In this document: one piece after another, positions 7,181 to 52,109 of the stretch | Numbering within the stretch: the stretch's first letter is position 1 | Layout of the letters: each line of letters begins with the position of its first letter | Assembly (NCBI RefSeq): GCF_963921235.1 | Contig: NC_086107.1 | Span: 104,224,001-104,288,000, forward strand | Origin: Mobula hypostoma | Taxonomy: Eukaryota | Reading direction: 5' to 3' | Length of the DNA: 64,000 bases | Translations under genes and position numbers: made by a program | Notes under the pieces: generated by a model | Databases searched by the model: none | Seen by the model: only the letters and a program-made list of their open reading frames with translations | Told to the model about the DNA's origin: nothing

Positions 7181-7247
7181 CAGCATATCTCCTTTCACAA
7201 TTTTCCACGTTTTCATAGATGGCTTCATTATTTAGCCTTAGTATCTA

Positions 7248-9855: not shown

Positions 9856-10335
9856 CCCATCCCCTTCCCTTCTCTCCCTTCCTTCTCAGCCCAACTTTCT
9901 TCCCTGCCTCATGGCCCTCCCTTGCCTCTCCTTCCTTCCCTGTTCCCTCTTTCCCCTTCTACTTTCCAGCCATCCCTTTTCCCTCCCTACCCTTCTCACT
10001 CCCTCTCTCTCCTTCCCCCTCCCTCTCCCCTTCAACCTTCCCCCTCCTCTTTTCCCTCCCTCCCTTCTCTTCCCTCCCTCCTTCACCCCTACTCTCCCCT
10101 TCCAGTTTCCCTCTCTCTCCATTCTTTCCCTCCCCTTTCTTTCTCTTTCCTCCTCTTCTTTCTTTTCCCTCCCTCCCCCTCTTTTACCTTACCTTCCCCT
10201 CTCTTCGCTCCCTACCCTTCACCCTTACTCCCTTTCCAGCTTCCCTCCTTTCCCTCTATTCTCTCTGTTTCCTCCCCTTCTCTCTTTTCCCTCCCTCTCT
10301 CTTTCCTCCTTTATTTCCCCTCCCCCCCCCACCTT
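9856..10335 (+). repeat. Polypyrimidine (C/T) low-complexity tract
   Basis: ~480 bp almost entirely C/T on the top strand, directly upstream of the CpG-rich core. Confidence 0.9.
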
Positions 10336-10339
10336 CTCC

Positions 10340-10530
10340 GACTGGCTCCCGCGCGGCGCGCGCCCATTTAAACGCAAACGGCGTGCACGTGTCTGCGCGC
10401 GCTCACCCCGGCTCGCTGTCAGGCGGTAGCCGCTCCGGGAGTTGCGGCGGATGAAACCGGGGAATAGGTAAATCCCGCCCCCTCCCCCGGAAACCGCAGT
10501 CGATGGAAGTGGAGAGCGGCTCTACGGCGT
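10340..10530 (+). promoter_or_regulatory. CpG-rich promoter / first-exon region of the sacsin-like gene
   Basis: High CpG density (GCGCGGCGCGCG), CATTTAAA, E-box CACGTG 10386-10391, GC-box CCCGCCCC ~10474; followed by ATG 10451 and donor AG|GTAAAT. Confidence 0.65.
10451..10467 (+). CDS. Candidate first coding exon (MKPGN-R, phase 2)
   Basis: ATG AAA CCG GGG AAT AG|gtaaat inside the CpG island; phase 2 matches every downstream 5' exon. Confidence 0.5.
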
Positions 10531-19500: not shown

Positions 19501-22500
19501 TCCCTACATTCTATTAAATCTCCACAGATTCTACCATTTACCTCCATACTGGGAGCAATCTTCAGTGCCCAGGTAACCTACTGGCATGCATGTCTTTGAG
19601 ATGTGGGAGGTAACCGGAGCACCCAGAGGAAACCCACATGGTCACATAGAGAACTTGCAAACTCCACAAGGAAAACACCCGAGGTCAGGATTAAGCTTAG
19701 CTGTGCCACTGTACATTTTTTGAAGCTCTTAAAATTGTTCCGCTGAAGGACTTAGGCTAAAGATAGTTCTTTTTCAGACAACAAAGATTATTAGCGATCT
19801 GGATAGCACGATCCACAAAAAGGAAGAAGGAAAGCAGTCCTTCAGTGACTATTATGGTTTACGGGCAGTTAAGTATTTTGTAGAAAATCAAGTACATACA
19901 AGTGCATTTCTTTTACCACTTGGAATTAAAATATGTTGACTAGGCGCAAGTTTCTTGATATTCCACAGTCACTAATGATAATTGTTTTTTTTTACTTTCA
20001 TTGAGGTGTACAGCAGCATCTCAACTAATGTCTTCTTCACTGCATCCTGAAAGTCGGGCTGGAGGCAGCATCAGCAGCAGTAACAAAAAGATCAGGTATA
20101 ATGAAGGAAGGGTCAATAATATGTTGAAGCAATAATTAAATTCAGAGTGTGTTCATGTATTTGTAGAGTAGAAAATCAGACTAACTACCTGGGTAATGTT
20201 CAGGAGTAAACATGGAACAATATACAGATCTGTATAAAAGCTGCCAGTCAAATTTCAGTTATTTTTCAAACATTGATTCACATTTTTGTTTTACACAGCC
20301 TCATTTGGACTTAAACTTTATAATGAACAAATGTAATCAGATTAATTGGGTCAATTCTTCTGGTCTTTATATATTGTATATGAGGACAGAAGAACATTAT
20401 CTGGGCACTTCGGTAGCACAATGCTATTACAGCTTGGGACATCAGAGTTTGGAGCTCGATTCTGGCACAATCTCTAAAGAGTTCATACATTCTTTCTGTA
20501 ACCGTGTGGGTTCCCTCCCAGAGCCTAAAGATGTATCAGTTATTAGGTTAATAGGTCATTGTAGAATTGTCCTGTGATTAGGCTGGGTTAAATAGGTAGA
20601 TTGCTGCGCAGCGCCATTTGTTGTGCCAGAATGACCTGTCCTGTGCTGTATCTCTAAATAAATAAATGAATAAATGGATGAATGAATAAATGGATAAATG
20701 AATAAATGGATGAATGAATGAATGGATAAGCAAGTAAGTAAGAAGTCCCAACAATGTAAGGGAATTGTATTGCCCATTAAGTTTTCTTCTCCTGGCATGA
20801 TATTCTTCTATTTTAACATTTGAGTTTTTTTTCTTAATGCATCCTATTGAAGATAATTGCTGGCACATATTTGAGTTCACCTGTTCTTCCTTGTGTCTCT
20901 TTCAAATTTGGACTGAGAAAGTTTTTAGCACAATACCCCCCAAAAAAAACTGGATTGCACAGATGAAAACATATTTATGTAGTGTTAACAAATTTTGCCT
21001 ACATTTTCAGTTGAGTTTACACTAGTCTTACAACTTGGCTAAATTGTAGAATGAAGTTCAAAATGATGCCGCTGAGTTTCAGGCAAGAGAAAGCAGGAGG
21101 AAAGTAGTAGAATTTTATCACCTTTGCCACCAACTTTCACCCTGCCCTCAAATTTACCTGGAATATTTTTGACACTTATTTTCTGGATCTTTCTGTCTCT
21201 ATCTCAGAATATAAACTATACAGCGATATTTATCATAAGCCTGCAGACTTCCACGGCTATATTAACTACACCTCCTTCCAACTTGTCTCATGTAAGAGTG
21301 TCATCCTGTTCTCTCAGATCTCCATCTCCATTGCATCTGTTTTCAAGATGAGGATTTCTACTCTGGTACTTCTGATATTCAAGATTCAAGATTGTTTAAT
21401 GTCATTTCCAGTACACAAGTGTAGATAGATAGATATACTTTATTGATCCCGAGGGAAATTGGGTTTCGTTACAGCCACACCAACCAAGAATAGAGCATAA
21501 ATATAGCAATACAAAAACCACAAACAATCAAACAACAAAATGCAAACTATGCCAGATGGAAAATAAGTCCAGGACCAGCCTATTGGCTCAGGGTGTCTGA
21601 GCCTCCACGGGAGGAGCTGCAAGTTCGATGGCCACAGGCAGGAATGACCTCCCGTGCCGCCCAGTGTTGTATCTCAGTGGAATATGGCCGAAGTCCAACA
21701 GCAAAAAGTTCAATATCCGGTCTACAAACACGTTCCTCGATCGTAATATGACCCGGATTGCACCATCTGTTGTTAACCAGAACAGTGAGCACCGAACTCC
21801 TTTACGCTTACTGCTCTCAGTGCACTTCTGGTCAGCCCGAACGGTCTGGAAGCCCTCCATGGAGAAGTTTTGATTGGGTATGTCCTCGTGCAGCCCCGTT
21901 CCAGTGAAACACATAATACTGCACTCCCGAAATGTTCTCTGATGCCTGGCTAGCGCCGTGAACTCATCCATTTTATTACCCACCAAACTCCTCTTCTCCA
22001 TAAGTCTCTGTTGTCTCGACCCAGTCCTCTTTCCTCGCCTTTGTGATCCCCCTCTGCATCCTCTGTGTATTTTCCTCCAGATTTCAGCAGGGGTGTCCGC
22101 TGCTCTGCTCGCTAAACCGGCCGGCATAAGCTCAATCAGTTGGTCCCTGGAATACACAATGCTCCCGCTAATGAGATGTGTCAGAATGTAACTATTTCCA
22201 GTGCTAAAAACCCAAATAAAACTCTCTCTACCAGCATGTTAGAAAGGGTGCAGCTTGGACGTGTTACCGTGCAAAAAAAAATACAAAACATAATGTAAGT
22301 TAAAAAGTAAGAAGAAAAAGTAATAATACTGGTCGGAACGGCTGTAACAGGCTGCATGCACGACCGGCGCGTGCGCACTAAAGGAGAACAAAATAATTGT
22401 TACTCCTGATCCGCTGCGGCACAAAAAAAGCAGAATAAGATAAAAAAGTAATAAAAATACAATATATATAAATACATAAGATAGCTTCTGAAATGTCTTT

Positions 22501-25500
22501 TTTCTTCAGGAAATGTGGCTTTCCCAGTGGCACAGCTGATAGAGTGCTTACATGCGTTTCCTCATTTCTCACATGTCTGCTTCACCACTCTCCTTAAAAA
22601 GAACACATGTAGAGTTTCCCTGGTCTTCACCTTTCAATTCTACTACATGCACATCTACCATATCACTGCTTCCACCAGCTCCAGTAGGATCCCACCACCA
22701 GCCACGGCTTCTCCTCTCCCTTCCCTTTTTGCTTTCTGGGGAAACTCCTGGTCAGATCATCCCATAAATCCCACCACTTGCTGTCCCTGGAACTTTCCCT
22801 GAGGTGCAACATTTGTCCCTACACCTCCCTCACCAACATCCAGTGACTTAAACAGTCTTCCTAATTCTTATGTACCTCCTCCAACCTGGCCCATGAGGCC
22901 AAAATGTGGCCTCCTCCACACTGAAAAGACTAAGCATAGACTAGGCAATGGTTTTGCAGAGCACCTGTGCTCTATCTGTAATGAGCACCTTGAGATTTGG
23001 ATGCATGTGATTTCAGCTTCTCATCCTACACCACACCAAAACATCTGTTCTTTGGCCTATTGCCATGGTAAAGTAAAGCTAGTGTAGAACTATTCCCTGT
23101 ATTCCTCTTGGGTAGCCTACAGCCCAATGTTAACATTTAATTTTCCAATTTAAGATTAACTCACTTTCCTTCTGACCTCCTTCACCATCCCATGTTCCTT
23201 TTCAACTCTCACTAATCCACCCAGGATCTCCCTCACTCTCTTAACCTTTTGAATTCCTCCCACCCTCATTACCTAGATTCATCAATTCCCCTATCTTGTT
23301 CTATCTCCCATTTCCCATTCACCTATCCATCTGGGTTTCTTCTTCCCTTCCCACTTGGTTCCATCTGCCCCTCATTTCCCCTTCATCTGGTTCCACCTAT
23401 CACCTACCAGTCTCTATATTAAAGTTATTATAAAGCTTTGTGGCACACTATCTCCATCACCATTTCCATTAAACCAGTTCTGGTTCAATTTGAATGTAAA
23501 GGAGCATGCCTGGAGCTGCAGGTGATGCATCTAAAAATGAGATGCTGCTAAAATTATAAAGCAGGACTACATGTATTCTAAAAAGCAAAGGCAGTATTTT
23601 GTAATCACAACAAATAAAGCTCTGTAAGCTTGCTACATCCAATTCTGAAAGTGGCAGACCACTAACAAAGAGGTTTCATGAACACATTTATCCTGAGTGT
23701 TGGCAGAGCCCAACACACAAGTGCTAAAGTCAAGTGTGCATTTTTTATACTGAGCAGCCTGTAAGGTGAAATAAAATAATTGGATACAGCAGTTATAGAA
23801 AAAAGCCATAATACAACAGTCATTTGGAATTAATGCTCAAGTCATAGATGAACTTTTATTATTAATATAGGAAGAAATTTGGTGCAACTGCTCCACAATT
23901 TATTGATTATCTGAAAGAGATACTACGTCGATACCCCGATGGAGGCCAGATTCTTAAGGTAAGTACTCAATTTTGAGGACCAGTTTTGTCCCTAACAAAG
24001 CTTTTGCTTTTAACATACCTGTAGAATCCCTTAGGATTCTCCTTCACCTTGTTTGCTAGAGCAATTTCATGCCTTCTTTTAGCCCTCCTGATTTCTTTCT
24101 TAAACGTTCTCTTGCATTTCTTGTACTCCGTGAACACCTCATTTGTTTCTACTTGCCTATACCTACTATGTACCTCCTTTTTTCTCTTAACCAGGGCCTC
24201 AATATCTCTTCAAAACCAAGGTTCCCTACACTTGTTACCTTCACCTTTTACTCTGACAAGCACGTATAAGCTTTGTTCTCTCAAAATTTCATTTTTGAAG
24301 GCCTCCCACCTTCCAAGTACAGAAGACAGCCTGTCCCAATGCACATTGCCAGATCATTTCTGATATGATCAAAATTGGCCTTTCTAATATTTACAATCTC
24401 AACCCGCAGACCAGACGTATCATTTTGCATATTTACTTTGAAAATAATGTCATTGTGGTCACTGGATGCAAAGTGTTCCCCTACACAAACTTCTGTTGCC
24501 TGCCCTGTCTCATTCCCTAATAGCAGATCCAGTAGCACACGCTCTCTCATTGGGACTTCTATGTACTGATGAAGGAAACCTTCCTGAACACATTTGACAG
24601 ACTCTATCCCATCTAGTCCTTTTACAGTATGGGATTCCCAGTTAATATAACAACCTTATGTTTCTTGCACCAGCCTGCGATCTCTTAACAAATTTGTTCC
24701 TCTAAATCTCTGGGATTGTTGGGTGGTCTGTAATATAGCCCCATTAACATAGTCATACCTTTCTTATTTCTCAGTTCCACCCATAGTGCCTCACTAGTTG
24801 AGTTCACTAGTCGGTTCTGACGGAGCACTGCCGTGACATTTTCCTTGACTAGTAATGCCACCCCTCCTCCTTTAATCCCTCCTGCTCTGTCACATCTAAA
24901 AAATGGAACCCTGGAATATTGGGCTGCCAGTCCTGCCCCTCCTGCAACCAAGCCTCAGTAATGGCTACAACGTCATAATTCCAGGTGTTGTCCATGCCCC
25001 GAGTTCATCTGTCTTTCCTATGATACTTCTTGCATTGAAATATATGCAGTACAGGACACTAGTTGTACCATGCTCAACCTTTTAATTCTTGACTTTGTCT
25101 GGGGTCTTACCAACGTATGCCTCTATAACCCCTCCACACTCTGACACTCTGGTTCTCATCCCCCTGCAACTCTAGTTTGAAACCCACCGTGAAGCCTTCC
25201 TGCTAGGATATTAGTCCCCCTTCAGCTCAGGTGCAAACTGTCCCTTCAGTACATGTCCTACCTTCCCTGGAAGAGAGCCCAATGATCCAAAAATTTTATG
25301 CCCTCCCTCCTAACTCCTTAGCCACGTATTAAACCGTATAATCTTCCTAGTTCTAGCCTCACTAGCATGTGGGATGGTGAGTGATCCTGGATCACAACCC
25401 TGGAGGTCCTGCCTTTTAACTTAGCACCCAACTCCCTGAATTCCCTATGCAGAACCTCGTCACTTATCCTGCCCATGTCATTGGTATTTACATGGACCAC

Positions 25501-37500: not shown

Positions 37501-40500
37501 CCTATACTACTCTTGATTTTATAAACAGAAGGGCCTTTGAATGAACCTGTATGTGATCAGATGCTGTTACTGAAACTGCAGAACATGCACAGAAGTGGTT
37601 ACCTGCAAATCTTCTCAAAGTCCACATATACACACATACTGTTAAATGTGCTTGAAGTCACTTTTAGTTTCAAGAACTTGCTGGGAATCATAAAAATACA
37701 AAATACTGAAAATTTTAAAAAACTAAATGTTGGAAATGTGAAATAGAGGAAAAAAATGATTGGAACTCTGGACAGGTCACACAGCAAAAAAAGGGGAGAA
37801 ATTCAGCAAGAGTGGAATTTTTAGAAGGGAGCTTGATGGCAGTGATAAGAAATGAAATAACGTCCTGGTTAAAAAATATTTGGTGCTACCAAGATAGCTC
37901 AGTAAATAAACATGATGCAAAATGTACTACTATGCCATATATAATGTTGGAAAGTCTGCAACAATGTCTGTCAAAGAGAGAGCATTGTAGGACTGAACAT
38001 AATAAGATGTAATAGATATAAAGCAAAAAATGCATAAGATTCACATTGCTGAAACAAGAGGTTGATATTATTTAAAATGCTTTTGAATCTTTTTGGGACA
38101 TTGTAAGAAATCATGAAAGCTCTCAAAATTCAAATCTTCCTTCTGATTAAAGTAGCAGCTGTTGGGTGAAATGGAAAGGGAATAAAGTCAATAGGAAAGA
38201 ACAGTGAAAAATATTCTTACAGTATGTGTAAATAAAGACACTATTATATTACTCCATAATCCTGGTTATTTTACTTGTGAATTTCAAGCATTTTACATTT
38301 CCAGCTGTTGGTTCACATTTATTCCAATACAAAGCTTAGTTCATTAAACATCACTGTGGTTTCTTTCTCCTCATTGTAATAGGCATATTGCTAAAATGTA
38401 TGAATAATCACTAGTATTTTATGTTTATAGGATTTTACTTCCAGGACTTGAGGAGAGATTTTTGCCTGAAGATCTTTGTGATACTTTGCTGGATCATCTA
38501 AAGAAGATTGCTTATAGTCGTAAGATATTTACTTCTGCTTGAGTATAATGATACCTTATTTTTGTGTATTTAGTACTGAAAACAAAAGGACTATTGAGAT
38601 AAGATTGGTCTTCACTGAAAGCATCTTATTAGCAACAGTTAATCATCAGCCTGTTTATGGGCCAAGTATACAATGTTGAGTTGTTTTTATAAGAAGCAGC
38701 AGCAGTTTACACTTAAACCCAAAAGTAAATTCTGCCTTTGGGGTCTTTGAAGATGCAGTTTACCTTATTTCAGTTTGACATAACTATATTTGTGAATCGC
38801 AGCCGTATAATCTTGGAGTCAAAGGTTAGTTGGAAATCAACTCTTCTTTAAAGTAACACACATCAAAGTTGCTGGTGAATGCAGCAGGCCAGGCAGCATC
38901 TCTAGGAAGAGGTACAGTTGACGTTTCGGGCCGAGACCCTTCGTCAGGACTAACTGAAGGAAAAGCTAGTAAGAGATTTGAAAGTGGGAGGGGGAGGGGA
39001 AGATCCAAAATGATAGGAGAAGACAGGAGGGGGAGGGATGGAGCCAAGAGCTGGACATGTGATTGGCAAAAGGGATATGAGAGGATCATGGGACAGGAGG
39101 CAGAGAAAGCAGGATCTCCCAGTGGCCACACATTTTAATTCCATATCCCATTCCCATTCTGATATGTCTATCCACGGCCTCCTCTACTGTAAAGATGAAG
39201 CCACACTCAGGTTGGAGGAACAACACCTTATATTCCATCTGGGTAGCCTCCAACCTGATGGCATGAACGTTGACTTCTCTAACTTCCGCTAATGCCCCAC
39301 CTCCCCCTCGTACCCCATCCATTATTTATATACACACATTCTTTCTCTCTCTCTCTCCTTTTTCCTCCCTCTGTCCCTCTGACTATACCCCTTGCCCATC
39401 CTCTGGGCTTCCCGTTGTGTCTTTCTCCCTGGGCCTCCTGTCCCATGATCTTCTCATATCCCTTTTGCCAATCACCTGTCCAGCTCTTGGTTCCATCCCT
39501 CCCCCTCCTGTCTTCTCCTATCATTTTGGATCTCCCCCTCCCCCTCCCACTTTCAGATCTCTTACTAGCTCTTCCTTCAGTTAGTCCTGACGAAGGGTCT
39601 CGGCCCGAAACGTCAACTGTACCTCTTCCTAGAGATGCTGCCTGGCCTGCTGCGTTCACCAGCAACTTTGATGTGTCTTGCTTGAATTTCCAGCATCTGC
39701 AGAATTCCTCGTGTCTTCTTTAAAGTACTTTCCTTACCTAGTTGAAATATCCATGTTTAATACAATGGATATTTCTAATTGGGACCTTTGATCTACAGCG
39801 GTGCTCAAAAACTGCAGTTCTGCATCATGACAATAAAACCAGGGGAGAAAAGGAACAGAACTGCTTTAAGGATTCGAAGTTTTGATAAGCTCTCCTTTCA
39901 TTCTTTTAAGGGCTTGACAAGAGAGATGTAGGGAGGATGCTTCCCCAGCTGAAAAGGCATGAATCTGTGTGCACTTTTTGAAATTAAAGGGTCAATATTT
40001 AGGATGGGCCTTTAGAATTCTCTGCGATGGAGGCCTGTGGAGGCTTGATTGTGTTTAGTCAATCGAGTAATATAGGAGTTGTGCTGGAAAATATTGTTGC
40101 AGTAGAAAATCATCTTAATAAATGGTAGAGCAGGCGTAAGTTACCAGATGGCATTTTCTGTCTGTTATTTCCAATGTTTAATCAGATGATTCATTAACTG
40201 TGATAAGTTTTAATGTACAGTATGATATTGGAAACAAAGCACTGGAAATTCTTTATTGTGTTCTTCTTCCAGAAATATTTGCCAATGTCATCTGTTTGGA
40301 TGTGAATACTGTGAGGCAGTACATTTGGAAAGCTCTTCCAGAGGCCTGGAGTGGAACATTAGGTCCCGTAACATGGGATATTTTAAATAGGCAGCACCCA
40401 CCAGTGCATTGGCTTGCAGAATTTTGGAATTTCTTGAATAACAATTGTAAAACATTGGATAAGTTTGAAGGATTACCACTCATACCACTCAACTCACTAA

Positions 40501-43500
40501 AAGATTGTGCAAACAGTATTCAGCTAGCATATTTGTCAAAAAACATCACCACAATATTTCAAATGCAAACTGGTTACAATTTACCAGGTACAATTGCAAG
40601 TATAATTTCAAGAGCTGGGGGCAGCATAGTTCAGAGCACTGATGAATTTCTAAAGCATCAGCAGTTATCTGAGTATGTGTTTTTACCCAGTCCAAATAAT
40701 GTCTTAAAGGTTTTTTTGAATCTGGGTTGTGATCAGGTAGTAAAAGAGATTGACTGTATGTCAACCGAAGACAGAAGATCTTTGAGAAGTTTTCTTGCAG
40801 AAGCATCCATTTTTGAGACTGATGAGATAAATATGTTATTCAAGTTACCAATCTTTCAACAGATGACTTCCCTTAGGCCGTCAGACAAAGGGTTTATCAC
40901 AGCTGGACCACATGGAGCCCTGAGTAATGATGTCTACCCTGAGATCCCAGATGATGTGCCTCTACCAGAAACTGTACTTAAATGTGTAGATGAAAATGAC
41001 AGGAAACTGCTGCTGATGAAAGGAAAATTACTGACAGCAGCAGATGTTGCTTTGCTCATGTTGAAGGGGGTAGAAACCCAAAAGTACGAGCCTGAGCAAA
41101 TTGAAAAGGTAATGCTCTGGATTCTAAAACATAGTGAGATACTTTTTAAACAGAAACCAGAATTATTCAACAAATGTAAAACACTTAAATTTTTAACATC
41201 AAAGGACAAGGTTGTACCAGCTTCTTCTTTATTTGATCCAAATAATGTGGCGTTTCAGCATCTCTTTCAGACAGAGTATCAGCACTTTTTTCCGCCCCCA
41301 CTTTATTGTAAGGATGAGAAAATTTTGCAGGCATTACAAAAACTGGGGCTGAAATCAGAAGAAGAGAATATTTCACCAGAAGACATTATAAAAGTTGCAC
41401 AATTGATAGATAAACAACACAGCCATACTAGTGACATTGACAGTCTTTGTAAAAAAGCAGACGTTTTAATTCAATTGTGTAATACAACTTCAGTTTTGGC
41501 TATTTGTTCATATCAAACCATTGAACAATTACGCTGTTTGCAGTGGGTGCCCTGTAACACTTGTCCAAAAACACTGACAGAACATAAGAAAGTAAAGATT
41601 AATTTTTATAAGCTTGAAAATGTAAGAGATTTGAAATACGCTAACATCGTGGGGCTAGTGATGCCACTTACTGACAAGTTCATTGAGAAGGCAGGCAAAA
41701 TCCTGGGGCTACTGAACTTACCACCAGCTGAAAAGGTGGTTGAAAACTTCCTACTAATGGTTAACCAGATATCCAACTCTAGTAACACTCGTCGTAATTT
41801 TCTGGCAGATTTGCAAAACATCTATGAACACATGCAAAAAAACCTTAGTCAATTTAAACCACTTCTCCTGACTATAGAGCTGCCATGGGTATGGAATGGG
41901 GCTGGGTTTACACATCCTTACAATATTGTTTTCTCCTATCCTGAAGATTTGGATCTCAGTTGTTATGTAAAAAAAATCCCACAGGAAATCGCTCAGTATA
42001 GAGAGTTACTACTTGAATGCGGGGTGAAAAATGGTTACAGCAGCAATGAAGTTATTCAGATACTGTATAAGATAAGAGATAATGCAGTTAAAATGAACAC
42101 TGGCTGTGGTAGCCCAAGTGAATTGAAGACCGTTATTTCCATACTGGATTGGATGCGCAGAAATAACTTTTCACCCAAGAGTGACCTTCCTGTCCCTGTG
42201 CGGAAAGGTACCCAAGATGGATTCTGCTTGAAACCATGTTCCAAAGCTGTTCTGTGTGATTTAGATAAGGGAACAATGGAGGCTTTTAATAAATGTGATG
42301 AAAATATTCATATTCTTCATAAAGATATAAGCATCGCCATTATTGAATGGCTTAATGTGCCCCCTTTAAGCAGCAAAATGCTGCAACCTGAATTAATTGG
42401 AATTGAGCAATATGGACAAGTAGAACCCATTGTACTGAGAATTAAGAACATTTTGAAAGAATATGATCAAGAACATGACCTGTTCAAAGAGATGCTTCAA
42501 AATGCTGAAGATGCTGGTTCTACAGTCTGTAGTTTCCTAGTAGACATGAGACAACACAAAGATTCACCTGAAAGTCTAATTGATCCTGGTATGGCTTCAT
42601 GTCACGGACCAGCACTCTGGTCATACAATAATGAGTGTTTCACTGATGAAGATTTCCACAATATAACTAGAATTGGGACAGCTTCCAAAGAAAAACAGGT
42701 TGATAAGATTGGAAAATTTGGACTTGGATTTAATTCTGTTTATCACATAACTGATGTCCCATCCATCCTCAGTGGAAAATATTTGCTTATTTTTGACCCA
42801 AATGTTACTCATCTTAAGAAATATATTCATTCTGTAACTAACCCTGGAATAAAACTTAATCTGTATGAACATAGACGATTAATTCAAAAATTTCCTGGAC
42901 AGTTTAACCCCTACAATGGAATATTTGGATGTAATTTTAAGATTTCCACTGGGGAAAATTTTTACTATGAAGGAACCCTCATTAAGTTGCCCTTTAGGAC
43001 TCCAGAGGAGGCTGCAGTGTCAGGGATCTCCAGCAAGTATTATAATCAGAAACACATCATGGCCTTGGTGGATAGTTTCAAGCAGACATCAAAAGATCTC
43101 ATCATATTCTTAAAGAATGTAAGAAAAGTTTCTCTAAAGTTCATTAGTGAGCATTCAGTTCATGAAAACCAGTTAATCTCTGTATTCAAAATGGAACGGC
43201 AAATACTTAACATAATTGAGATGGCAGATAATTTCCCACTGAAGAAAATGCAAGAAAACGCTATAAGCATATTGGAAAGCACAAATAAATTTTCCAGAAA
43301 AATCAGAAGTCTAAGAATTTCAACTATTATACAGGTTACAGAAGAAACAATAGATAATCCCAGTCATAGAAAATATTGGTTAGTTCATACATGTTTTGGA
43401 ATGGCAAAAGCCTTGCAGTTTTCATGCAGTAAAGCAACAAATACTTATTTTGCCCCTCCTCTTGGAAGCGTGGCCATTCCACTCAAAAAGAAGAAAGAAA

Positions 43501-46500
43501 CAGGACACTGGACTCCGAACACAGAAGCTCAGGTGGGGCAAGTGTTCTGTTTTCTGCCTCTTTCCCTTCAGTGTGGTCTTCCTGTTCATATTAATGGAAC
43601 GTTTGCTGTCACATCGAATAGGAAGAATCTTTGGAGCTCTGGACTAAAAGGAGAATGGAATCAAGTTCTTTTGGAAGATGCAGTTTCTGCAGCTTACATC
43701 ACATCTATTTCACTCATGCAGCAAATGTCTCAGAAAGGAGAATTTGAAGATTATGATTACTACACATTTTGGCCTAATGTGAAAAATGTGGATAACCAAT
43801 TTAGAGTTATTGTGGAAAATTTCTACCGAGCAATTGCACACGGAATCAATGGTGTTAGAGTCAAAGCATTCAGCAATGGACAAGGCTGGTGCACAATAAA
43901 CCATGCTCGTTTTTTGGATTCTTCCATTGTTGAAAACAAAAGGGTCGGAGAGATTGCAATTACTGAATTTTCCAAATACCTATCAAAGCCCTTAATTTCA
44001 GTTATGTTACCAGATTGGGTTAGGCACGGTTTCGTTGCCAGTGGATTTGGGCATTTGATTGAACAAAACACATATACTTGGGAATCATTTTACAAGGAAA
44101 TTGTATTTCAGAACTTAACTACACTAAGTCCCATTACCAGAAATATCTTTATTATTTATGCAATTGATATGAGAGATACATATATTGATGAGATGCTAGT
44201 GACAAGACCTTGTATTCCATCTAGCGGGAAGAGAGGCCTCCAATACATTAAAAATCTTGTGCATCCAGAGGGCAAAGTTGCTTGTCTTTATGATGAAGAA
44301 GAAGGACGGTTTCCCCTAGGACATACTAAGGATTTTCTCCATCCTGAGAGATTGTTAAGATTGGAAATGCTTGGGATGGTAAAAGACAGAATTGCTTTCC
44401 TTGATTTAATTGAAAGAGCAGAGACAATTGAGAAAATATGGCCCCTTGAGAGGAACAAAGCATATCAACGAGTTCGCCATATTTTGGATTTGCTCAAAGA
44501 TTTGAATAAACTCAGCAATGAAGACCAACAAAGTTTACAGAGTATTTCATTCCTCCCAGCTTTTCTCCCACATAGTTGGGAAAAAGATAATACTTTAGAT
44601 GCCGTAGTTTTACAGAAAGCAAAGGATGTGTACAGTTGCAAGTACTATGCACTAGTAAGTATGATGGAAATGGTTTTAGACAAAGAGCTGTTGAAAGGGA
44701 TCAAACTGTCTGCAGAAGCAATTTCTTATCTAGGTTTGAACAAACAACCACCTGTTGAGATTGTGTTAGAACAACTAAAGCAGGCATATGTGCGTAATAG
44801 TCTAACAATTAATGAACTGAAACGATTAACTAAGGAATGCTACTTCTACTTGAATAAACAGTTAAAGGGAGATTCAGAATTAAAAAACACAATCTTCAGT
44901 GCTGCTCAAGAATTTCCTTTCATTTTAGTACATGGACAGTTTGTCCCTGTTGAGTTGGTTGCTTGTAAGGTTTCATTTGATGCTGCTCCATACTTATATG
45001 AACTTCCTAAAGAATACATAGAGTGCGAGGAATTATGGAAGTGCCTAGAGATCAAGGAACATTTTAAACTGCAAGACTATGTCTCTGTTCTGACAAGAAT
45101 GTCAGAAAAATACAGTGGGACAAGGCTCTCTGATAATGATCTTGCTGTGTGTCTTAGAATTGTAACTACAGGATTTACAGAGGCCTCAGAACAGGAAGAT
45201 ATCTTGCAGAATGTTCTCCTGCCTAATCAACATTGTGTCCTTCATTCTGCTCAAACATTACAGTACAATGATACACCATGGCTTGTCGTTGGAGATGACG
45301 TCAATCTCTGCCACAATCAGATTGCTAGAGAAACAGCTATCCGTTTCCACGTTCAGACAACAAAACACCGTGCAATGAAAAACCTTGAAGTCAAAGATTT
45401 GTCGTTATGGGCACAAGAATTTGGCCAGCAGGAAAAATTGACAGTCCGTTTAAAAAATATCATAAAGGCTTATCCATCCAAGAAAGATATACTGAAGGAG
45501 TTGATTCAGAATGCAGATGATGCTGAGGCCTCAGAAATCCATTTTATTTGGGATCCCAGAAAGCATGGCAACACAAAGACCTTTGGTGAGGAATGGAATG
45601 CACTTCAGGGACCTGCGTTGTGTGTTTACAATAACAAGAAGTTCACTGACAAAGACATTGAAGGTATACAACAGCTTGGAGAAGGAGGAAAGCGTAACAG
45701 CCCAGAGAAAACTGGAAAATATGGGCTTGGTTTTAATTCAGTGTATCACTTGACGGACTGTCCTTCTTTTATATCAGGTGACAGCATGCTGTGCATCTTT
45801 GATCCACATTTAGCTGTGCTGGCCACAGCAAAGCCACATTCCCCAGGAGGTATGTTTACAGTCAATCAGAAATTTAAAAATACATTTGAAGATGTTTATA
45901 CTACTTTTCTCCCTACCTTCTTCAATCTCGAATTGGGTACCATGTTTCGGTTGCCAGTGAGAACAGCAGAGATGGCGGAAAAATCTGATATCTCAAAGCA
46001 AGCAGTCACAAAGGATGTAATTCTAGAATTGCTGGAAGTATTGAAAGAAGATTCTGATAGTCTCCTTTTGTTTTTAAATAATATTAAGAAAATCAGTTTT
46101 CATAAAGTGGAAAAGAAAACAAGTGACCTGCATGAAATCTTTACTGCAGAAGTAGAAATGTCACTCGAAAGCATTGCCAAACAGGAACACCTGAAGCATT
46201 ATATCCAGAAGTGTTCAAATTACAAGGCTGTAGTATCCAAAATGGAATTTCACCAAGTGATATATGAAATGGAGATTCAATCTTCGGTCAAAAATCCAAC
46301 CAGATGGATTTTGGCAAATCAAGTGGGTGTTCATGAAGCAGGATTAACTGAGTCAGTGCAGAGCTTTTGTTCAAAACTGGGCCATCTATTTTTGCCCCGG
46401 AGCTCTGTTGCTGCCTGTATTAACTGCAGTAACTTTCAAGGTAAAGCCTTTTGCTTCTTGCCTTTGCCCATAGAAACTGGTCTGCCCGTACACATCAATG

Positions 46501-49500
46501 GAAACTTTGCTGTTGACTTTGCCAGGCGAGATCTTTGGAAACAAGATGGCCAAAGTGGAAAGATGAAATGGAACAACTTTTTAAAATTACACTTGATTGC
46601 ACCTTTGTACGCAGATTTACTTGATTACATTCGGATACATTTACTTGGTAATAGAGTAGGTCCACTAAAATCTGACAGTTTGGAATTATGCCTCAACGTC
46701 ATTGAACCCAGTTATCTATGCTTCTTCCCCCATGTCTCTGAAGAAGTTCCTCAAGAATGGCAGTTAATGATAAATCAAGTTTACAAATGCATATATCAAA
46801 AAAGCCTTTGTCTGATCCCAATAGCCAAACATGAAAGTAATAAGTTTCGTAATGAGAAGAACATTATTAATATTTTTTGGTCCAGCTTGAGCAAGGAAAA
46901 GAGAGATGAAGTTCCTCATTTTGTAACTACTCACATCACAGTGAAACTGATAGAAATTTTGGAGGATATTGGTATGAATTTAGTCTTACAATCTAACTTT
47001 ATGTACAAAGTTTTGAAGAGTTTAGAAAGAGCTTGTTTGGAGGTTTCTCTTTTAAACCCAGGAGCAGTCAGGAAGTTTCTTCAAATCCATCCACTGAACA
47101 ATACAGAGGTAACAAACAGTAACTACCCATTCCCACTCAGTGAATCCTTGATTAAAGATGGTGCTAGATGCATGACTCTTTTAGACTACTGTCTCTCTGA
47201 TGTCAAGGAAGGAAATTATAATGTTATAAATCACTTACCTTTATTGATCACACAAGATTATATGCTGGGAAAATTTAAACGAACCTCTCCCAAATATATT
47301 ACTAAATTCCATGATTTATTTCCAGAATTTCAGCCACACTTTGCAAACTATGATGTCAACAAAAGATACAAGGATCTTCTTATTACAGCTCTTTATTTAG
47401 AAGATTTTACTATTTCAAGAGCAGAGCAATTTATCCGAAACAAACTTGGATATAGATTTCAGATTAATTCTACAGACCCACATTCATGGCTAAAGTTTAC
47501 TGAAAATGAACAGTATTCAGAGTGGCTGAAGAAATTGTGGAAATATTTTGAGAGCCAGGTAAAATATGATGATGATACTGAGAACACATTTAATAATCTC
47601 AAATTAATATTCTCAGACCTTGCAATATTACCTGTAGTATGTCCAATTTATCATGACCAGTGCCTACTTGCACCTGTGGGATCATTAAATAGTGTTATTT
47701 GTGAAATGACACAAACAAGCATAGCACAAATTCTGTTAAAACTTGGGTTTGCTAAAATTGCTGCTGATTACTTTTCTATGAAAGTACTATTTAATTGCGT
47801 TAGACCTCACTCATTAAGGACTGATGACAAAGCCTCCATTTTACAACATCTGCGTTTGACAAAATTAAAGTGGAATAACTTAAGTGAGTGGGAAATTGAA
47901 ACTATTTTGAGGTTCCTTCATTCTGGAATGCAGACAAGTGATGATAGACATAACTATCAGGACCAGCTAAAAACTCTTCCACTTTTTGAAACAATGGAAG
48001 GGAGTTTTGAGAATATTGAAATGTACAATGTGATTTACATTCTAAATACACAATTCATTAATACATTTCCACACTTATATAAATTAGACAGCTCATGTAT
48101 ATTTTTGAAAAAAACGAGGATAAACATTGAGGTGTCAGAAGATTTGGGGATACGGATAATTGATGATTTGCAATTCTTCATGGATTATATCCTTCCTAAT
48201 ATTGAACAAATATTTAATGATCAAAAGCTGGATGTCATACGTCTCTTGTATAATATCATCTGTTGTTATAGTGCAGAGTATGACCTGAAGAAAGAAAAGA
48301 TTGTGTCTAATCTCAGAAACATAAAACTTATCAAAGCCAACAGTGGAATATTTCAAAAAGTTTCTTATTTCTATGAGAAGAGAGAACCATTATTTAAAAT
48401 TATGATTCCTACAGAAAAGTTTGTTCCTGAGAACTTTTTGAAAGATATGGGATGCTATTATGATGATTCCAATTTGAACAAATTGCTGAAGGATCTGGGA
48501 ATAAAGTGTTCTGTTTCTTCAGATGATTTTATTGCTTTTGCATTGCAAGTTTCAGAAGAGGTGAACCTGCATGCTCCTTTGAAAGAACTAATTGAAAAAA
48601 GTGATGCTTTAATCACCTACTTCAGTAATGTTGCTGAGGAGAACCTTCAAAAGAATTTTTATGAAAAAGTGGCAGATATTAAATTTGTCTATCCACACAG
48701 AGTTCGAGAGTGTTTACGTAACTTGCATCCCCCTTTTGCAGAAGGGAGGCATTTTGTTGCTTTTAGGGACTCATTGGTGAAACAACGGGAGGAAGATGAG
48801 GAACTGGTTTGGGCTTCCATGCCCATATTACCATCAAAGTGTACACTCTCAAGAAATATGAGCAGACTAAAAGCTACTGGTGCTGTTTATGTTCCTCCAG
48901 AGTCTGTAGTCATAACAAACCTTAGAAAAGTTTGCTTAGCCCCCTGCAAAAATTGTAGTGCCTTAAAAACCAGATCCAGAGTGCTTCAGACTGCTTATGG
49001 CTTTCTTCAGAATCATTCATTTAATGTGTTGCCTCTGATTGATCTTCCAATTGTTCTTGTAGAAGAAGACACTCTGCTAATAAAAATCAGCCAGGTGGTG
49101 TTCTCATTACAAAATTACAATGATTTTCATCCTTATTTGTACCGGCTCCCCCCAGTGCTTGCTCCATATCATGAGTTCTTCCAGAAGCTGGGGGTCGCTC
49201 TGGAACCATCAGCTTGTCACCTTGTTCAGATACTCCGGTCTCTCTATGAAGCCACCAGCAAAGTGAGTGGCTTAAATCCAAACCAAATGATCACCGTCAA
49301 ACGGACCTTGTATCATCTGTTTACACTTTTGGAGTCTAGAACAGAGGAACGAGCTGTTGAGAAACTAAAGCAGTTATACCTCCCAGCAAGTGATGGTGTT
49401 ATGTACCCATCCAATACATTATGTTTTAACGATAGGATTAGTACAGGTTCCAGAAGAGATGTCAGTGTTTTAAATGGAAAGTTTAATTTTCTTCTAGATC

Positions 49501-51278
49501 TTGGTGAATGTCACTTGAGTTCTGATCCTTACAAGCAGATAAATCTCTTACAGTTTCTACCTGAAGAAATTCGCCCCAGTATGCTTTCTCAAATAACAGA
49601 GGAAATTCTTAATGAATCAGTTCTATGTTTATGTTCACATGGAGATAACTGCACATTCAGAAATGATTTCTACAAGATTCTTGTGTCCTCTAACTTTAGA
49701 GGTGGACTAACAAGCTTGTTAAAGGGCCAGTGCAGTGGGGAGCTGCCTGTGAGAGACATTGAGCATGATTGTGAAAATGTCTTTTCCAAAATGCAAATTA
49801 TCTGCTGCAAGAAACTAGAAACAATTCTTTGCTTGGGGTCAGAACAGCTGAGTGATACCAGCATTGAGAAACAAGTCTACACCAAGATAGGCAGCACAGG
49901 TAACGGTGTGGTTTACCTGGAGCACAGAGATAATGTACCATTCAGCATGAGAACAGTCATTATCCATTCACTGGCAACAGAGCTCAATGTACTGTTGAAG
50001 AATGCCTTAAACAAAGATTCACTATTAATTCTGGTGCTGATGCTCAGTTGCGAAAATCCACAAGACATAAAGAAAGTGTTGGAAGACAAAGGCATTCACA
50101 CTAGTAAGTTAAAAGTAGAGATTCCAATGAACCAGCCTAATCCTGGAGATCCTGTTCCAGAAGAACTTATTCACACACTGGAAATGGATATTGCATATCA
50201 TTTCAAAGCTGGTGAATATGTGGCTTACAAAGGTCCCAATGCAATTGATTATGTCTATGCCATTTTTATTGAGCGGATAAGCACTGATATGTTTGCCAAA
50301 GATATAAAAATGCAAAGGTATAAGATAAAGATAGGTATAGACTCCTTCACTACAGTCAACCATCTGGACTTGTATAAATTCAGTCAACAAAAGATGCCTG
50401 AAGAAATATGCCAGAAAGTTGTTGTACAGGATGCACCAAAAGACAAGCAACAAACATCCAGCCAGAAGTATGAATCTTTAGACAGCATAAAGAAAGAAAT
50501 TCATGATTATCTAAAGGAAGTAAGAAATCTCCCGAAGGATGAGAGACAGAAAGCAATTCGTCGCCTTTACCTAAAGTGGCATCCAGACAAAAATCCAAAT
50601 AACACTGAAGTAACAACACAATTGTGTCACTTTATTCAAGAGAAAGTGAAGCAGCTGGATGTCATCCGAGCTGAGAATGCAAGCTGCTCGTCAGATTACA
50701 AAAGCTCCTTCTCCAGTAAAGAGGAAGATTTTTCATCATTTTTTAATCAGTGGAATAGTGAGGCATCAAGGCATAAGAAGAGCCGATCACAGCAGAGAAA
50801 AAGCCACCGTGCCAATGAATTCTGCTCATTCCCAAAGAAAAACCAGTCCAATCCAGAAGAGGCTCGAAGGTGGTTTAGACAAGCAAAATGTGACCTGAGA
50901 GCAGCTCACAATGACCTGGGATATTCCGGCCAAGATGGCACTGCCATTGAATGGTTGTATTTTAAAATTCATCAAGCGGTGGAGAAAGCTTTGATTGCTG
51001 CAGAGTACAAGAAAAGTGGAATATGTATTAGTGATCACAGCATCACCTACCTTGCCAACCAGGTATCAAGTTATAGTGCAAAACTATCAGACCTGGTGAG
51101 CTTGGTGAATAAACTCAAAGATTATGGAGTAGATAGGAAGAAGACTCAGTATCCCAACTATCATTCACAGCCCCATGTCCCAAATGATCTCTTCAAGTCA
51201 GGTCATGAACAAGAAGTCCTGACTTTAGCACAAACAATTCTGGATAGTATTGAAGAGTTCATCACAAGTAACACATAG
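10451..51278 (+). CDS. SACS: Sacsin-like protein, multi-exon gene (3x SIRPT/GHKL repeats, J-domain, HEPN); probably a UBL-less paralog of SACS
   Basis: Exons join in frame through GT-AG junctions with matching phases: ...[43 protein letters not shown]...[11 protein letters not shown]...[22 protein letters not shown]...[14 protein letters not shown]...AYSQ|IFANV...ITSNT*. Length is 4326 aa from ATG 20028, or 4369 aa using all candidate 5' exons. The symbol denotes the family; orthology is uncertain. Confidence 0.9.
10530..11450 (+). repeat. Purine/G-rich degenerate tandem repeat (GAGATGAGGT/GGTGA units)
   Basis: Many GAGATGAGGTG / GAGATGGGGTG units; a ~60-bp block at ~10594 recurs at ~11090. 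Confidence 0.85.
11570..13640 (+). mobile_element. CR1 3' fragment(s), split by a Rex1 insertion
   Basis: [18 protein letters not shown]...[15 protein letters not shown] (11571-11767) continues after 13094 ([12 protein letters not shown]); TTCTATG tail. Confidence 0.75.
11768..13093 (+). mobile_element. Rex1/Babar LINE, RT and 3' end (frameshifted)
   Basis: [35 protein letters not shown] (RT), [49 protein letters not shown] tail. Confidence 0.85.
14829..15956 (-). mobile_element. Rex1/Babar LINE, 3' fragment
   Basis: ORF 15059-15412 is an RT C-terminus; (TCTGAT) tail. Confidence 0.8.
16338..17240 (-). mobile_element. CR1 LINE 3' fragment, same young subfamily as 4603-7180
   Basis: Near-identical to 4610-5520; ORF 16588-17241; CAATAGA tail. 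Confidence 0.9.
18196..18372 (-). mobile_element. Short tRNA-derived SINE with 12-bp target-site duplication
   Basis: A-box TGGCGTAGTGG, B-box GAGTTCGAATCC, (CTT)n tail; AGGGAGTTTAAG at 18184-18195 and 18373-18384. Confidence 0.8.
18972..19291 (+). mobile_element. Chapaev3-like (CMC) DNA transposon, 3' fragment
   Basis: From 18976: [24 protein letters not shown], a transposase C-terminal motif; ends GAGGAAGCAACACTTTTGAAAAAAATTGTTGTCCAGT, like the 3' end at 60835. Confidence 0.7.
19420..19710 (-). mobile_element. Degenerate V-SINE-like element
   Basis: TGTGGGAGGTAACCGGAGCACCCAGAGGAAACCCAC core (reverse complement of the V-SINE central domain). Confidence 0.6.
19778..19867 (+). CDS. Candidate 5' exon of the sacsin-like gene (90 nt, phase 2/2)
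   Basis: Acceptor TTCTTTTTCAG|, donor |GTTAAG (weak); open in the required frame ([31 protein letters not shown]). Confidence 0.3.
20006..20095 (+). CDS. Probable 5' exon of the sacsin-like gene (90 nt, phase 2/2; internal ATG 20028)
   Basis: Long polypyrimidine acceptor TTTTTTTTTACTTTCATTGAG|, donor [38 protein letters not shown] splices in frame to 23871. Confidence 0.6.
20403..20740 (+). mobile_element. Degenerate V-SINE-like element followed by an AATA/GAAT/GGAT microsatellite tail
   Basis: Decayed tRNA head, GTGTGGGTTCCCTCCCA core, CTGTGCTGTATCTCTAAATAAATAAATGAAT... tail. Confidence 0.55.
21110..23420 (+). mobile_element. Old Penelope-like element (RT end + GIY-YIG remnants), interrupted at ~21377-22486
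   Basis: CCACCAACTTTCACCCTGCCCTCAAATTTACCTGG (RT end); [21 protein letters not shown] (degenerate GIY-YIG), paralleling 30541. Confidence 0.6.
21423..22379 (-). mobile_element. Internally deleted Rex1/Babar LINE (5' UTR + start of APE domain fused to 3' tail)
   Basis: ORF 21588-22157 YSRDQLI...RGCRGG...SLVGNKMDE...[15 protein letters not shown]...GFQTVRAD; (TATC)n tail at 21423. Confidence 0.7.
23871..23958 (+). CDS. SACS: Sacsin-like coding exon (88 nt), start of SIRPT1
   Basis: TAG|G AAG AAA TTT GGT...[41 protein letters not shown] (not in the ORF track). Confidence 0.93.
23981..25950 (-). mobile_element. Older CR1 LINE with ORF1 esterase remnant and ORF2 endonuclease
   Basis: 25318-25611 [13 protein letters not shown]...[10 protein letters not shown] (SGNH esterase-like); 24685-24951 [18 protein letters not shown]; 24281-24550 [10 protein letters not shown]. 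Confidence 0.75.
26364..26475 (+). CDS. SACS: Sacsin-like coding exon (112 nt), GHKL N-box of SIRPT1
   Basis: CTCTCCTTGTTTCTAAG|GAA TTG...[34 protein letters not shown]. Confidence 0.93.
27296..29540 (-). mobile_element. Vingi-like (Ingi-related) non-LTR retrotransposon, 5'-truncated
   Basis: [84 protein letters not shown]; stop codon followed immediately by a TGA-type tail. Confidence 0.7.
30063..31197 (+). mobile_element. Penelope-like element with GIY-YIG endonuclease and inverted terminal arm; 15-bp TSD
   Basis: [28 protein letters not shown] (30541-30834); TGTATTCCATTATCC at 30048-30062 and 31198-31212. Confidence 0.88.
32131..32277 (+). CDS. SACS: Sacsin-like coding exon (147 nt), GHKL G-boxes of SIRPT1
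   Basis: TTTCCTCCATTAG|GT CCG...[26 protein letters not shown]...[16 protein letters not shown]. Confidence 0.94.
32627..34097 (+). CDS. SACS: Sacsin-like coding exon (1471 nt)
   Basis: TTTTTGCAG|AT GTA CCA...[49 protein letters not shown]; same frame as ORF 32788-34101. Confidence 0.95.
34216..35591 (-). mobile_element. RTE-clade LINE, 5'-truncated, RT region largely intact
   Basis: QFGF...[49 protein letters not shown]; (ACG)n tail; GGTTC on both flanks. Confidence 0.85.
37236..37314. mobile_element. 79-bp hAT-type MITE in a CR1 3' tail
   Basis: TIRs CAAGGATTCCCAA / TTGGGAACCCCTG; 8-bp TSD CTCTAAAC/CTCCAAAC. Confidence 0.75.
38431..38519 (+). CDS. SACS: Sacsin-like coding exon (89 nt)
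   Basis: TTTTATGTTTATAG|G ATT TTA...[39 protein letters not shown]; phases 2 and 1 link the 1471-nt exon to the giant exon. Confidence 0.88.
38915..38951 (-). ncRNA. Minimal type I hammerhead ribozyme motif (Penelope-associated), antisense copy
   Basis: Reverse complement reads AGTC-CTGACGA-A-GGGTctcgGCCC-GAAA-CGTC-AACTG. Confidence 0.55.
39583..39619 (+). ncRNA. Minimal type I hammerhead ribozyme motif (Penelope-associated), sense copy
   Basis: CUGACGA core 39587-39593, stem II GGGU/GCCC, GAAA 39607-39610, palindromic ACGU stem III, GUC triplet ending 39614. Confidence 0.6.
40273..51278 (+). CDS. SACS: Giant terminal coding exon of the sacsin-like gene (11,006 coding nt)
   Basis: Acceptor TTCTTCTTCCAG|; SIRPT2 from ~42405 ([21 protein letters not shown]), SIRPT3 from ~45417 ([21 protein letters not shown]), J-domain WHPDKN (HPD 50580-50588), HEPN from ~50850 ([12 protein letters not shown]); TAG 51276-51278. 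Confidence 0.97.
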
Positions 51279-51577
51279 GGACATTCCCCCTTTTCCTTAT
51301 CAGTAGCTGATAGAAGGGTAGAAGCATTGTTCAAGCAAGTCACTGATGGAGGCAACAAACTTCTCTTAACAAAGTAAAGTCAAACTTGATACCTATACAT
51401 ACTGATACCCTTTTGTCTATACTGCGGTATCTGACAATTTACTAAAAAGAAGTGCTACTGACCAGATAACTGTAAATTGTTCTCATGTACATACCTGTCA
51501 GATAAATGTTTCTGCTTAGTGAACTGAATCGAAACCATTTTCTACCTGCATTTATTATATTCACTTTTATAATTAGC

Positions 51578-51583
51578 AATAAA
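51578..51583 (+). terminator. Candidate polyadenylation signal
   Basis: AATAAA ~300 nt after the stop, followed by T/GT-rich sequence; another AATAAA at 51732. Confidence 0.5.
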
Positions 51584-52109
51584 ATAATTTGTGTTAAATT
51601 ACTTTCTTGTCTGAACAAAATGGTTTTTAAACTCAGGTGACATAATTGTTCCATAAATAACTGGACCCACTCTCCCATTGTTCCCACATCTAATTAAAAA
51701 AATACAGTACAAAATCTACCCTCTGCAATCTAATAAATGGTTCATTTTATAATCTGTCTAAATTTGTGTCAAGAAAGCAGCTAATAATCCCCTAAACTTT
51801 GGATAGGTGATGGTATAACCATATAACAATTACAGTACCGAAACAGGCCTTCTCGGCCCTTCTAGTCCATGCCGAACTCTTACTCTCACCTAGACCCACC
51901 GACTAGGTGATGATGGAAACATGTTATCCACTGTACAGAAACTATATTGATAAATTAGATTAAGGATCATCTTTCTATTTCCTATCAACTTTAATGTAAA
52001 GTGCAGCATTAAATTGCATTTAATTCAAACATTGTGTTGAACTCCATTAACAAGTAAAGATGTAATTAGATAGAACAATCGATCTATTGCATGATGGATG
52101 TAGACAAAA

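Follow-up and report, generated by a model that had tools for sequence, protein, structure and literature searches.

Vertebrate SACS, the ARSACS gene (PDB 3o10, 1iur), encodes a protein in which a ubiquitin-like domain (UBL) precedes three GHKL sacsin repeats, a J-domain with an HPD motif and a HEPN domain. The same GHKL family, PF25794, includes bacterial Tiamat and plant NO VEIN, which have anti-phage and plant-virus links, respectively. Among relatives of Tiamat, an anti-phage ATPase, sacsins have been described as the closest, with an antiviral role left open (bioRxiv 10.64898/2026.09.30.754977), and NO VEIN was linked to Tiamat and sacsin (bioRxiv 10.64898/2026.09.30.755639); here and below, statements on the literature refer to the available parts of the cited sources. 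We discuss a sacsin gene without UBL in a stretch of 64,000 nucleotides, hereafter the window, of the ray Mobula hypostoma (contig NC_086107.1, positions 104,224,001 to 104,288,000, forward strand). The gene belongs to a second vertebrate sacsin lineage, called clade B here; clade A is SACS. With a probability of roughly 0.55, it may be read as the ray representative of a lineage that arose before the cyclostomes diverged, that retained the ancestral domain layout, and that acts as an infection-linked chaperone machine. Whereas Tiamat and NO VEIN combine one ATPase repeat with a PD-(D/E)xK nuclease, clade-B proteins have three repeats, a J-domain and a HEPN domain.

The type XI-A "Tiamat-like" SACSIN homologs of aquatic chordates were reported to contain three ATPases, a J-domain and a HEPN domain, and to lack UBL and XPCB (bioRxiv 10.64898/2026.09.30.754977). 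The ray gene shows the same combination of three ATPases with a J-domain and a HEPN domain, and likewise no UBL. Compared by description, type XI-A likely overlaps clade B, although the latter extends to amphibians, reptiles and birds. In zebrafish, a second, divergent sacsin was named sacs2 (si:dkeyp-118h9.7) and ascribed to the teleost genome duplication (PMC8395086), an origin that is rejected by the tests discussed below; zebrafish XP_682866, which falls in clade B, is probably sacs2. With type XI-A in print and sacs2 named, the gene can no longer be called largely uncharacterised, as it was in a preliminary description of the window. In the available part of PMC3629688, no mention of sacsin paralogs was found. 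A search of the literature, mostly without subscription journals, found no dating of the duplication, no tetrapod members and no assignment of the virus-induced transcript to clade B. Databases label members of this lineage "sacsin" or "sacsin-like," and the ray gene is unremarkable among them.

The Ray Gene and Its Product

The window sits on a contig, designated C45, of a genome of 3.48 Gb. Exons were mapped with protein models from sharks, rays and a chimaera (tblastn against the window) and a check of splice sites. All seven exons after exon 1 have AG acceptors and the six internal ones have GT donors. Spliced together, these seven encode 4,326 aa in one open frame that begins at Met 20028 and contains no stop other than the terminal one. 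An intact clade-B gene is confirmed in the ray, with eight exons including a candidate exon 1 and a product of 4,326-4,339 aa. Its features, in window positions, are the following.

10330..10528, plus strand: CpG-island promoter and candidate exon 1 (GC 0.68, CpG observed/expected 1.27; frames tested)
20006..20095, plus strand: exon 2, 90 nt, Ser/Lys-rich leader with the conserved Met at 20028 (shark, ray and chimaera models mapped by tblastn, splice sites)
23871..23958, plus strand: exon 3, 88 nt, FGATAP as the start of the first sacsin repeat (splice sites)
26364..26475, plus strand: exon 4, 112 nt, catalytic E...QNADDA box of GHKL 1 at 26364-26390
32131..32277, plus strand: exon 5, 147 nt, glycine box of GHKL 1 at 32235-32258
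32627..34097, plus strand: exon 6, 1471 nt, remainder of sacsin repeat 1 (Pfam PF25794, E 5e-21)
38431..38519, plus strand: exon 7, 89 nt (model mapping, splice sites)
40273..51278, plus strand: giant last coding exon, 11,006 nt, with GHKL 2, GHKL 3, J-domain, HEPN domain and stop
42489-42515 and 42711-42734, plus strand: boxes of GHKL 2, inside the giant exon
45498-45524 and 45714-45737, plus strand: boxes of GHKL 3, inside the giant exon
50481..50660, plus strand: J-domain with WHPDK at 50577-50591 (PDB 1iur, E 1e-12)
50850..51275, plus strand: HEPN domain with HQAVEK at 50970-50987 and TQYPNYH at 51144-51164, in which Q replaces the catalytic R and the H is kept (PDB 3o10, E 1e-22)
51279..51737, plus strand: probable 3' untranslated region with AATAAA at 51578 and 51732

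The Hypanus model has its N-terminal end aligned with window 10375-10539 (E 2e-6), where ATG 10451 is in frame via a donor at 10468 and ATG 10503 via a donor at 10529. With the Met at 20028, which is kept across cartilaginous fishes, there are three candidate starts, and the leader ahead of FGATAP measures 25 aa (Met 20028), 38 aa (ATG 10451) or 41 aa (ATG 10503). In the 4,326-aa product, the E-x-x-Q-N-A-x-D-A box is found three times (aa 53, 1398, and 2401), as is the G-x-x-G-L-G-F-N box (aa 125, 1472, and 2473), and HPD once (aa 4095). The Pfam SACS domain has two matches in the giant exon and one in exon 6, and Pfam HEPN matches with E 8e-9. The Pfam DnaJ score of 16.4 bits lies under the cut-off of 27.8, and skate SACS likewise reaches only 17.9 bits; in the comparison set, HPD was counted in 166 of 174 proteins. 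The product has the three GHKL sacsin repeats, the J-domain with HPD and the C-terminal HEPN domain of the sacsin family. As in the preliminary description, the three box pairs are intact and a short Ser/Lys-rich leader is all that precedes FGATAP. The repeats are presumably those known by the term SIRPT. In what we take to be the position of an XPCB-like region, the alignment has a gap of ~14 aa in clade B, and a similar gap is seen in amphioxus.

A Separate SACS Gene Carries the UBL

In the ray genome, PF25794 is found at two loci, and so is HEPN: C45 and a second contig, C21. The C21 gene shares 82-90% identity with SACS of cartilaginous fishes and 69% with human SACS. Two UBL exons (151 and 91 nt) are followed by exons of 86, 112, 147, 1483, and 92 nt and a giant exon, which bears out the sizes given for SACS in the preliminary description (112, 147, ~1.5 kb, ~90, and giant). 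The gene is flanked by sarcoglycan (~58 kb), a MIPEP-like M3 peptidase (~300 kb) and AMER (~0.9 Mb), which we take to be the arrangement around human SACS. None of these three was found on C45. RhoGEF and TNFR markers of the SACS paralogons had no match on C45 either (150 candidates scored for each), although the TNFR search also failed to recover the gene that should neighbor SACS. The window protein shares 31% identity with C21 SACS and 33% with human SACS. For the last six coding exons, the sizes in the window gene and in C21 SACS nearly coincide.

A generic ubiquitin Pfam search missed even the UBL exons of SACS and was replaced by a profile built from 69 SACS N-termini. This profile detects the two UBL exons of C21 (E 5e-22 and 7e-10), and none of 3,231 segments from a six-frame translation of the window matches it (best E 4.2). 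When searched with the C21 UBL exon, the whole genome returned that exon alone (1 match, 3 candidates) and no second copy. The profile matches none of the 120 proteins of the first homologue set, 2 of 78 further proteins from a caecilian-query search (a lamprey sacsin and newt SACS), 1 of 140 further representatives (hagfish), and 86 of 120 proteins of the SACS set, 69 of which had been used to build it. A Met start together with a first box that can be read is found in 158 of 189 clade-B proteins, and in 151 of the 158 the box lies at most 60 aa from the start (median 29). Several full-length clade-B proteins with a short leader come from ~13-kb Logan contigs, which barely exceed the coding sequence and are therefore probably spliced transcripts. 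The window gene is almost certainly a paralog other than SACS. The UBL is missing from it as the preliminary description had stated, and the separate, UBL-bearing SACS with the expected neighbors that it had anticipated does exist.

Origin and Distribution of Clade B

Trees were calculated on the second and third repeats, with 48 rows in FastTree, 24 rows under LG+G4 and 19 rows under LG+C20, all rows being hand-picked from named matches. Under both LG models, clade B is supported by 100/100, and so is clade A, which includes lamprey and hagfish; the grouping of A and B vs. the invertebrates has support of 97-98. The approximately unbiased (AU) test, which carries the same long-branch pull, if any, as the trees, rejects a grouping of B with gnathostome A (p 3.5e-6) as well as an origin in the teleost duplication (p 5e-4). 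As shown by the trees, the split between B and A would precede the divergence of cyclostomes and gnathostomes. The window gene thus would not be an ohnologue of SACS from a 2R duplication after the cyclostome split or from the teleost whole-genome duplication, and a first vertebrate duplication stays compatible. Hence, the view of an ancient second sacsin-family gene holds, with a clade and a locus of its own and the window protein outside the SACS clade.

Members of clade B occur in sharks, rays, chimaera, sturgeon, gar, bowfin, teleosts, lungfish, all three orders of amphibians, turtles, squamates (lizards and snakes) and birds. The earlier idea of a gene retained in fishes was correct as far as the fishes are concerned, but was too narrow with regard to the tetrapods. 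No mammalian clade-B protein was found among the best 120 of 636 matches to the caecilian query (1,690 candidates scored), and none of the further representatives matched an amniote clade-B protein best at an identity of 37% or higher. Since no mammal is listed, even though the list reaches down to SACS-level scores, loss of clade B in mammals is suggested. The closest named relatives of the window protein are from Hemitrygon (95%) and Hypanus (~94%).

Clade B evolves faster than SACS: in 12 of 12 matched taxon pairs it is less conserved than A, with 34-71 vs. 69-83% identity to the ray copies. Several clade-B copies share one contig in carps, Xenopus, newt and wolffish. Such faster evolution and local duplication would be like that of immune genes. 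A pair of divergent copies is present in bowfin (P0016/P0017), in sturgeon (P0013/P0015) and in tarpon (P0019/P0025), and those of bowfin lie on different branches, which suggests an old duplication inside clade B. Furthermore, P0320, P0184, P0186, P0325, and P0329 are invertebrate-type or unassigned sacsins of 6,300-7,400 aa, three of which have 4-5 GHKL boxes.

Virus-Induced Sacsin in Fish

The preliminary description did not touch on the virus-induced expression of this clade in teleosts. "Sacsin" was listed among the core genes induced by nodavirus in fish (PMC8875540). Salmon "sacsin" was upregulated after alphavirus infection (PMC6972705) and cod "SACS" was upregulated 9.9-17.4-fold (PMC3534563), whereas sea bream "sacs" was unchanged (PMC11207047). 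In lumpfish, "sacs-like" went up and "sacs" went down (PMC11357929); the supplements of this paper contain no "sacs" rows. The biomarker papers mostly read the transcript as the human ARSACS gene, and the lumpfish paper alone notes paralogue-specific regulation. Five quantitative PCR primer pairs printed in four papers were translated and compared with 193 B and 121 A proteins. The salmon "sacsin" primers fit 36 of the B and none of the A proteins at up to three mismatches, and those for lumpfish "sacs-like" match exactly in 7 and 0, respectively. When reversed, the cod primers fit the HEPN region of gadid clade-B sequences, with one mismatch in Boreogadus and two in Gadus morhua (by eye), and the reversed pair agrees with the printed product of 102 nt (hand count). 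In contrast, the lumpfish "sacs" primers correspond to 69 A proteins and 1 B protein, and those for sea bream "sacs," which sit on the UBL junction, to 35 and 0. Thus, induced transcripts map to B in 3 of 3 pairs and unchanged or repressed "sacs" to SACS in 2 of 2.

Indirect as primer mapping is, the teleost copy induced by viruses and poly(I:C) is very probably B. This assignment of primers to paralogs is new here, whereas the UBL-less architecture is already in print. If it is correct, the widely used aquaculture biomarker of the four papers on virus-induced "sacsin" or "SACS" (PMC3534563, PMC6972705, PMC8875540, PMC11357929) has been interpreted by way of the wrong human gene, and sea bream "sacs" would be unresponsive because its primers sit on SACS. 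Outside the vertebrates, oyster sacsins belong to the antiviral genes sustained by poly(I:C) (PMC7064767).

Possible Function of Clade-B Sacsins

Clade B may, at about even odds, provide an RNA-binding chaperone machine of innate immunity or infection stress. From the intact motifs, the GHKL repeats would act as ATP-driven clamps and the J-domain would recruit Hsp70, whilst a dimer of the HEPN domain would bind RNA instead of cutting it. Acting without a built-in proteasome handle, i.e., the UBL, such a machine may remodel or sequester ribonucleoprotein or protein assemblies in infected cells. The ray gene itself may be inducible, by extrapolation from the teleost copies.

Several observations weigh against the account of an early, infection-linked lineage. 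No clade-B protein was seen among the cyclostome proteins compared, and the early split therefore needs a loss or an annotation gap there. Among cartilaginous fishes, B is fairly conserved (69-95% identity), and the ray genome has a single copy. In 6 of 6 bird proteins (P0173, P0175, P0176, P0177, P0179, and P0180; ~3,960-4,020 aa), the HPD of the J-domain is missing. As to the primers, the lumpfish "sacs-like" pair also fits the third repeat of 87 of the 121 A proteins with one mismatch, so that assigning it to B relies on the other lumpfish accession being that of SACS. The cod primers have no match among the 193 B and 121 A proteins in the printed orientation and, when reversed, no exact match in 194 B and 121 A. 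Sites like the interferon-stimulated response element (ISRE) are not enriched in the window gene (9 vs. 7.9 expected), the sole perfect one lies in a coding exon and none is near exon 1, and the CpG-island promoter suits constitutive expression. One passage in the literature hints at an anti-apoptotic role, induction by itself is not function, and no tests of antiviral activity were found in the available parts of the literature examined.

A broader version of the infection-linked account can be put forward tentatively, with the odds somewhat against it. Clade B would then be an overlooked, pan-vertebrate antiviral effector related to Tiamat, which kept an ancestral defense role from shark to bird and was lost in mammals, whilst SACS acquired the UBL and was co-opted for housekeeping in neurons. 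The antiviral "sacsin" of fish would be a misnamed paralog, and the Q-x4-H motif of its HEPN domain (see below) a distinct RNA-binding or non-canonical nuclease site. The sorting of the paralogs gives a direct handle on the question left open in the Tiamat preprint, i.e., whether any eukaryotic sacsin is still antiviral. It also bears on fish, frog and chick models of ARSACS, which carry this second sacsin.

Alternatively, clade B could, like SACS, serve general proteostasis as a mostly constitutive chaperone, with induction in teleosts as a lineage-specific or secondary stress response and no special immune role in the ray. The promoter type, the lack of an ISRE excess, the single copy in the ray, and the three ATPase boxes and HPD, all intact as in SACS, agree with such a role. 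We consider it doubtful, however, in view of the paralog-specific induction in three teleost studies, with SACS induced in none of two, and of the faster evolution and repeated local duplication of B.

Probable Gain of the UBL by SACS

The preliminary description implied that clade B had lost the UBL. None of the nine invertebrate sacsins scanned has a ubiquitin match, and invertebrate sacsins (amphioxus, hemichordate, echinoderm and mollusc) have the same UBL-less layout as B. Of 39 representatives whose start is intact, 38 have leaders no longer than 78 aa, two of the 38 being teleost B; the exception is hagfish SACS. On the tree, one change suffices to explain the distribution of the UBL. 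As the invertebrates lack a UBL and the split of A and B precedes the divergence of cyclostomes and gnathostomes, a gain on the SACS stem is the simplest history. By parsimony, the UBL was probably gained by SACS, and the UBL-less layout would be ancestral and kept by B, contrary to the loss implied before; the UBL was earlier called a vertebrate fusion (PMC3710099). Clade B would be a natural, full-length sacsin that works without UBL.

It is also conceivable that the vertebrate ancestor had a UBL-sacsin, the UBL exons of which were dropped by B after the duplication. Since A and B are sisters (97-98), the UBL could date from their common stem, and the A proteins of cyclostomes already carry it. 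This history seems unlikely: it costs two steps instead of one, the window has no trace of a UBL, and the intron before the first repeat differs in phase between the genes, being phase 2 ahead of exon 3 of the window gene and phase 1 at the equivalent position of C21 SACS.

The HEPN Domain

The position of the catalytic R is occupied by Q in 187 of 187 clade-B proteins, and H follows four residues later in 173 of 187, whereas SACS has R and L at these two positions in 118 of 118. Hence, the R-x4-6-H RNase motif was not found in B, which has Q-x4-H instead, vs. R-x4-L in SACS. In helix 2, an HQAVEK-type motif with its E kept is found in B and, as HQAxEK, in invertebrates, in contrast to a YLATKL-type motif in A; the E is kept in 172 of 184 B proteins, and the next basic residue of E-x3-[KR] is not. 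Invertebrate sacsins, which fall outside the vertebrate A+B clade, differ from B in mostly having R in the HEPN motif (13/16). Cyclostome SACS of lamprey and hagfishes (P0190, P0322, and P0459) has Q at the R position in 3 of 3 proteins, and an account of the motif as a reciprocal loss was dropped as too simple for this reason. The clade-B protein of a penguin retains the HEPN domain, with Q where H would be expected.

With Q at the catalytic R position, canonical RNase activity of the clade-B HEPN domain is unlikely, and, by analogy to human SACS, the HEPN domain of which binds RNA (PMC13669270), RNA binding would be a better guess than cleavage. Still, B could be an inducible HEPN ribonuclease effector that is switched by the ATPase repeats and uses a non-canonical site composed of the H, the helix-2 E and nearby lysines. 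Such a site could be built on the H that B has in 173 of 187 cases and A in 0 of 118 and on the HQAVEK-type helix 2; HEPN-T families with H and without R may use other basic residues (PMC3710099), and Tiamat couples the same ATPase to a nuclease. Against it, the R is replaced in every B protein and is required for activity in KEN and PrrC (PMC3710099), and in gadids, whose copies show strong induction in cod, the H is replaced by A (P0178, P0478, and P0483), which makes a ribonuclease quite improbable.

Finally, the notion that an unannotated upstream UBL exon exists, or that the window gene is a 2R or teleost genome duplicate of SACS, draws on the candidate status of the 5' end and on sacs2 being called a probable teleost duplicate (PMC8395086), but is hardly credible, as the sole sacsin-type UBL exon of the genome is on C21, the first box is close to the start in nearly all intact-start B proteins, both duplicate origins are rejected by the AU tests, and the sarcoglycan, AMER and RhoGEF markers of the paralogon have no match on C45.

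Other Features of the Window and the Genome

Directly after exon 1 lies a degenerate tandem array with 41 copies of 16 bp (window 10537-11193). Purine-rich text resembling it reappears near window 16200-17800. Introns 4 and 7 contain copies of repeats that are related to each other (window 30643-31198 and 38848-39720), among them a pair of 254-bp inverted repeats with 96% identity in the intron ahead of the giant exon. On the minus strand, reading frames at window 4704-7194, 27302-28989, and 34226-35632 resemble, as judged by eye, reverse-transcriptase fragments of long interspersed nuclear elements. Elsewhere in the genome, on contig C78 (30.93-31.14 Mb), a cluster of tandem di-ubiquitin-like matches possibly represents an expanded ISG15-like array.

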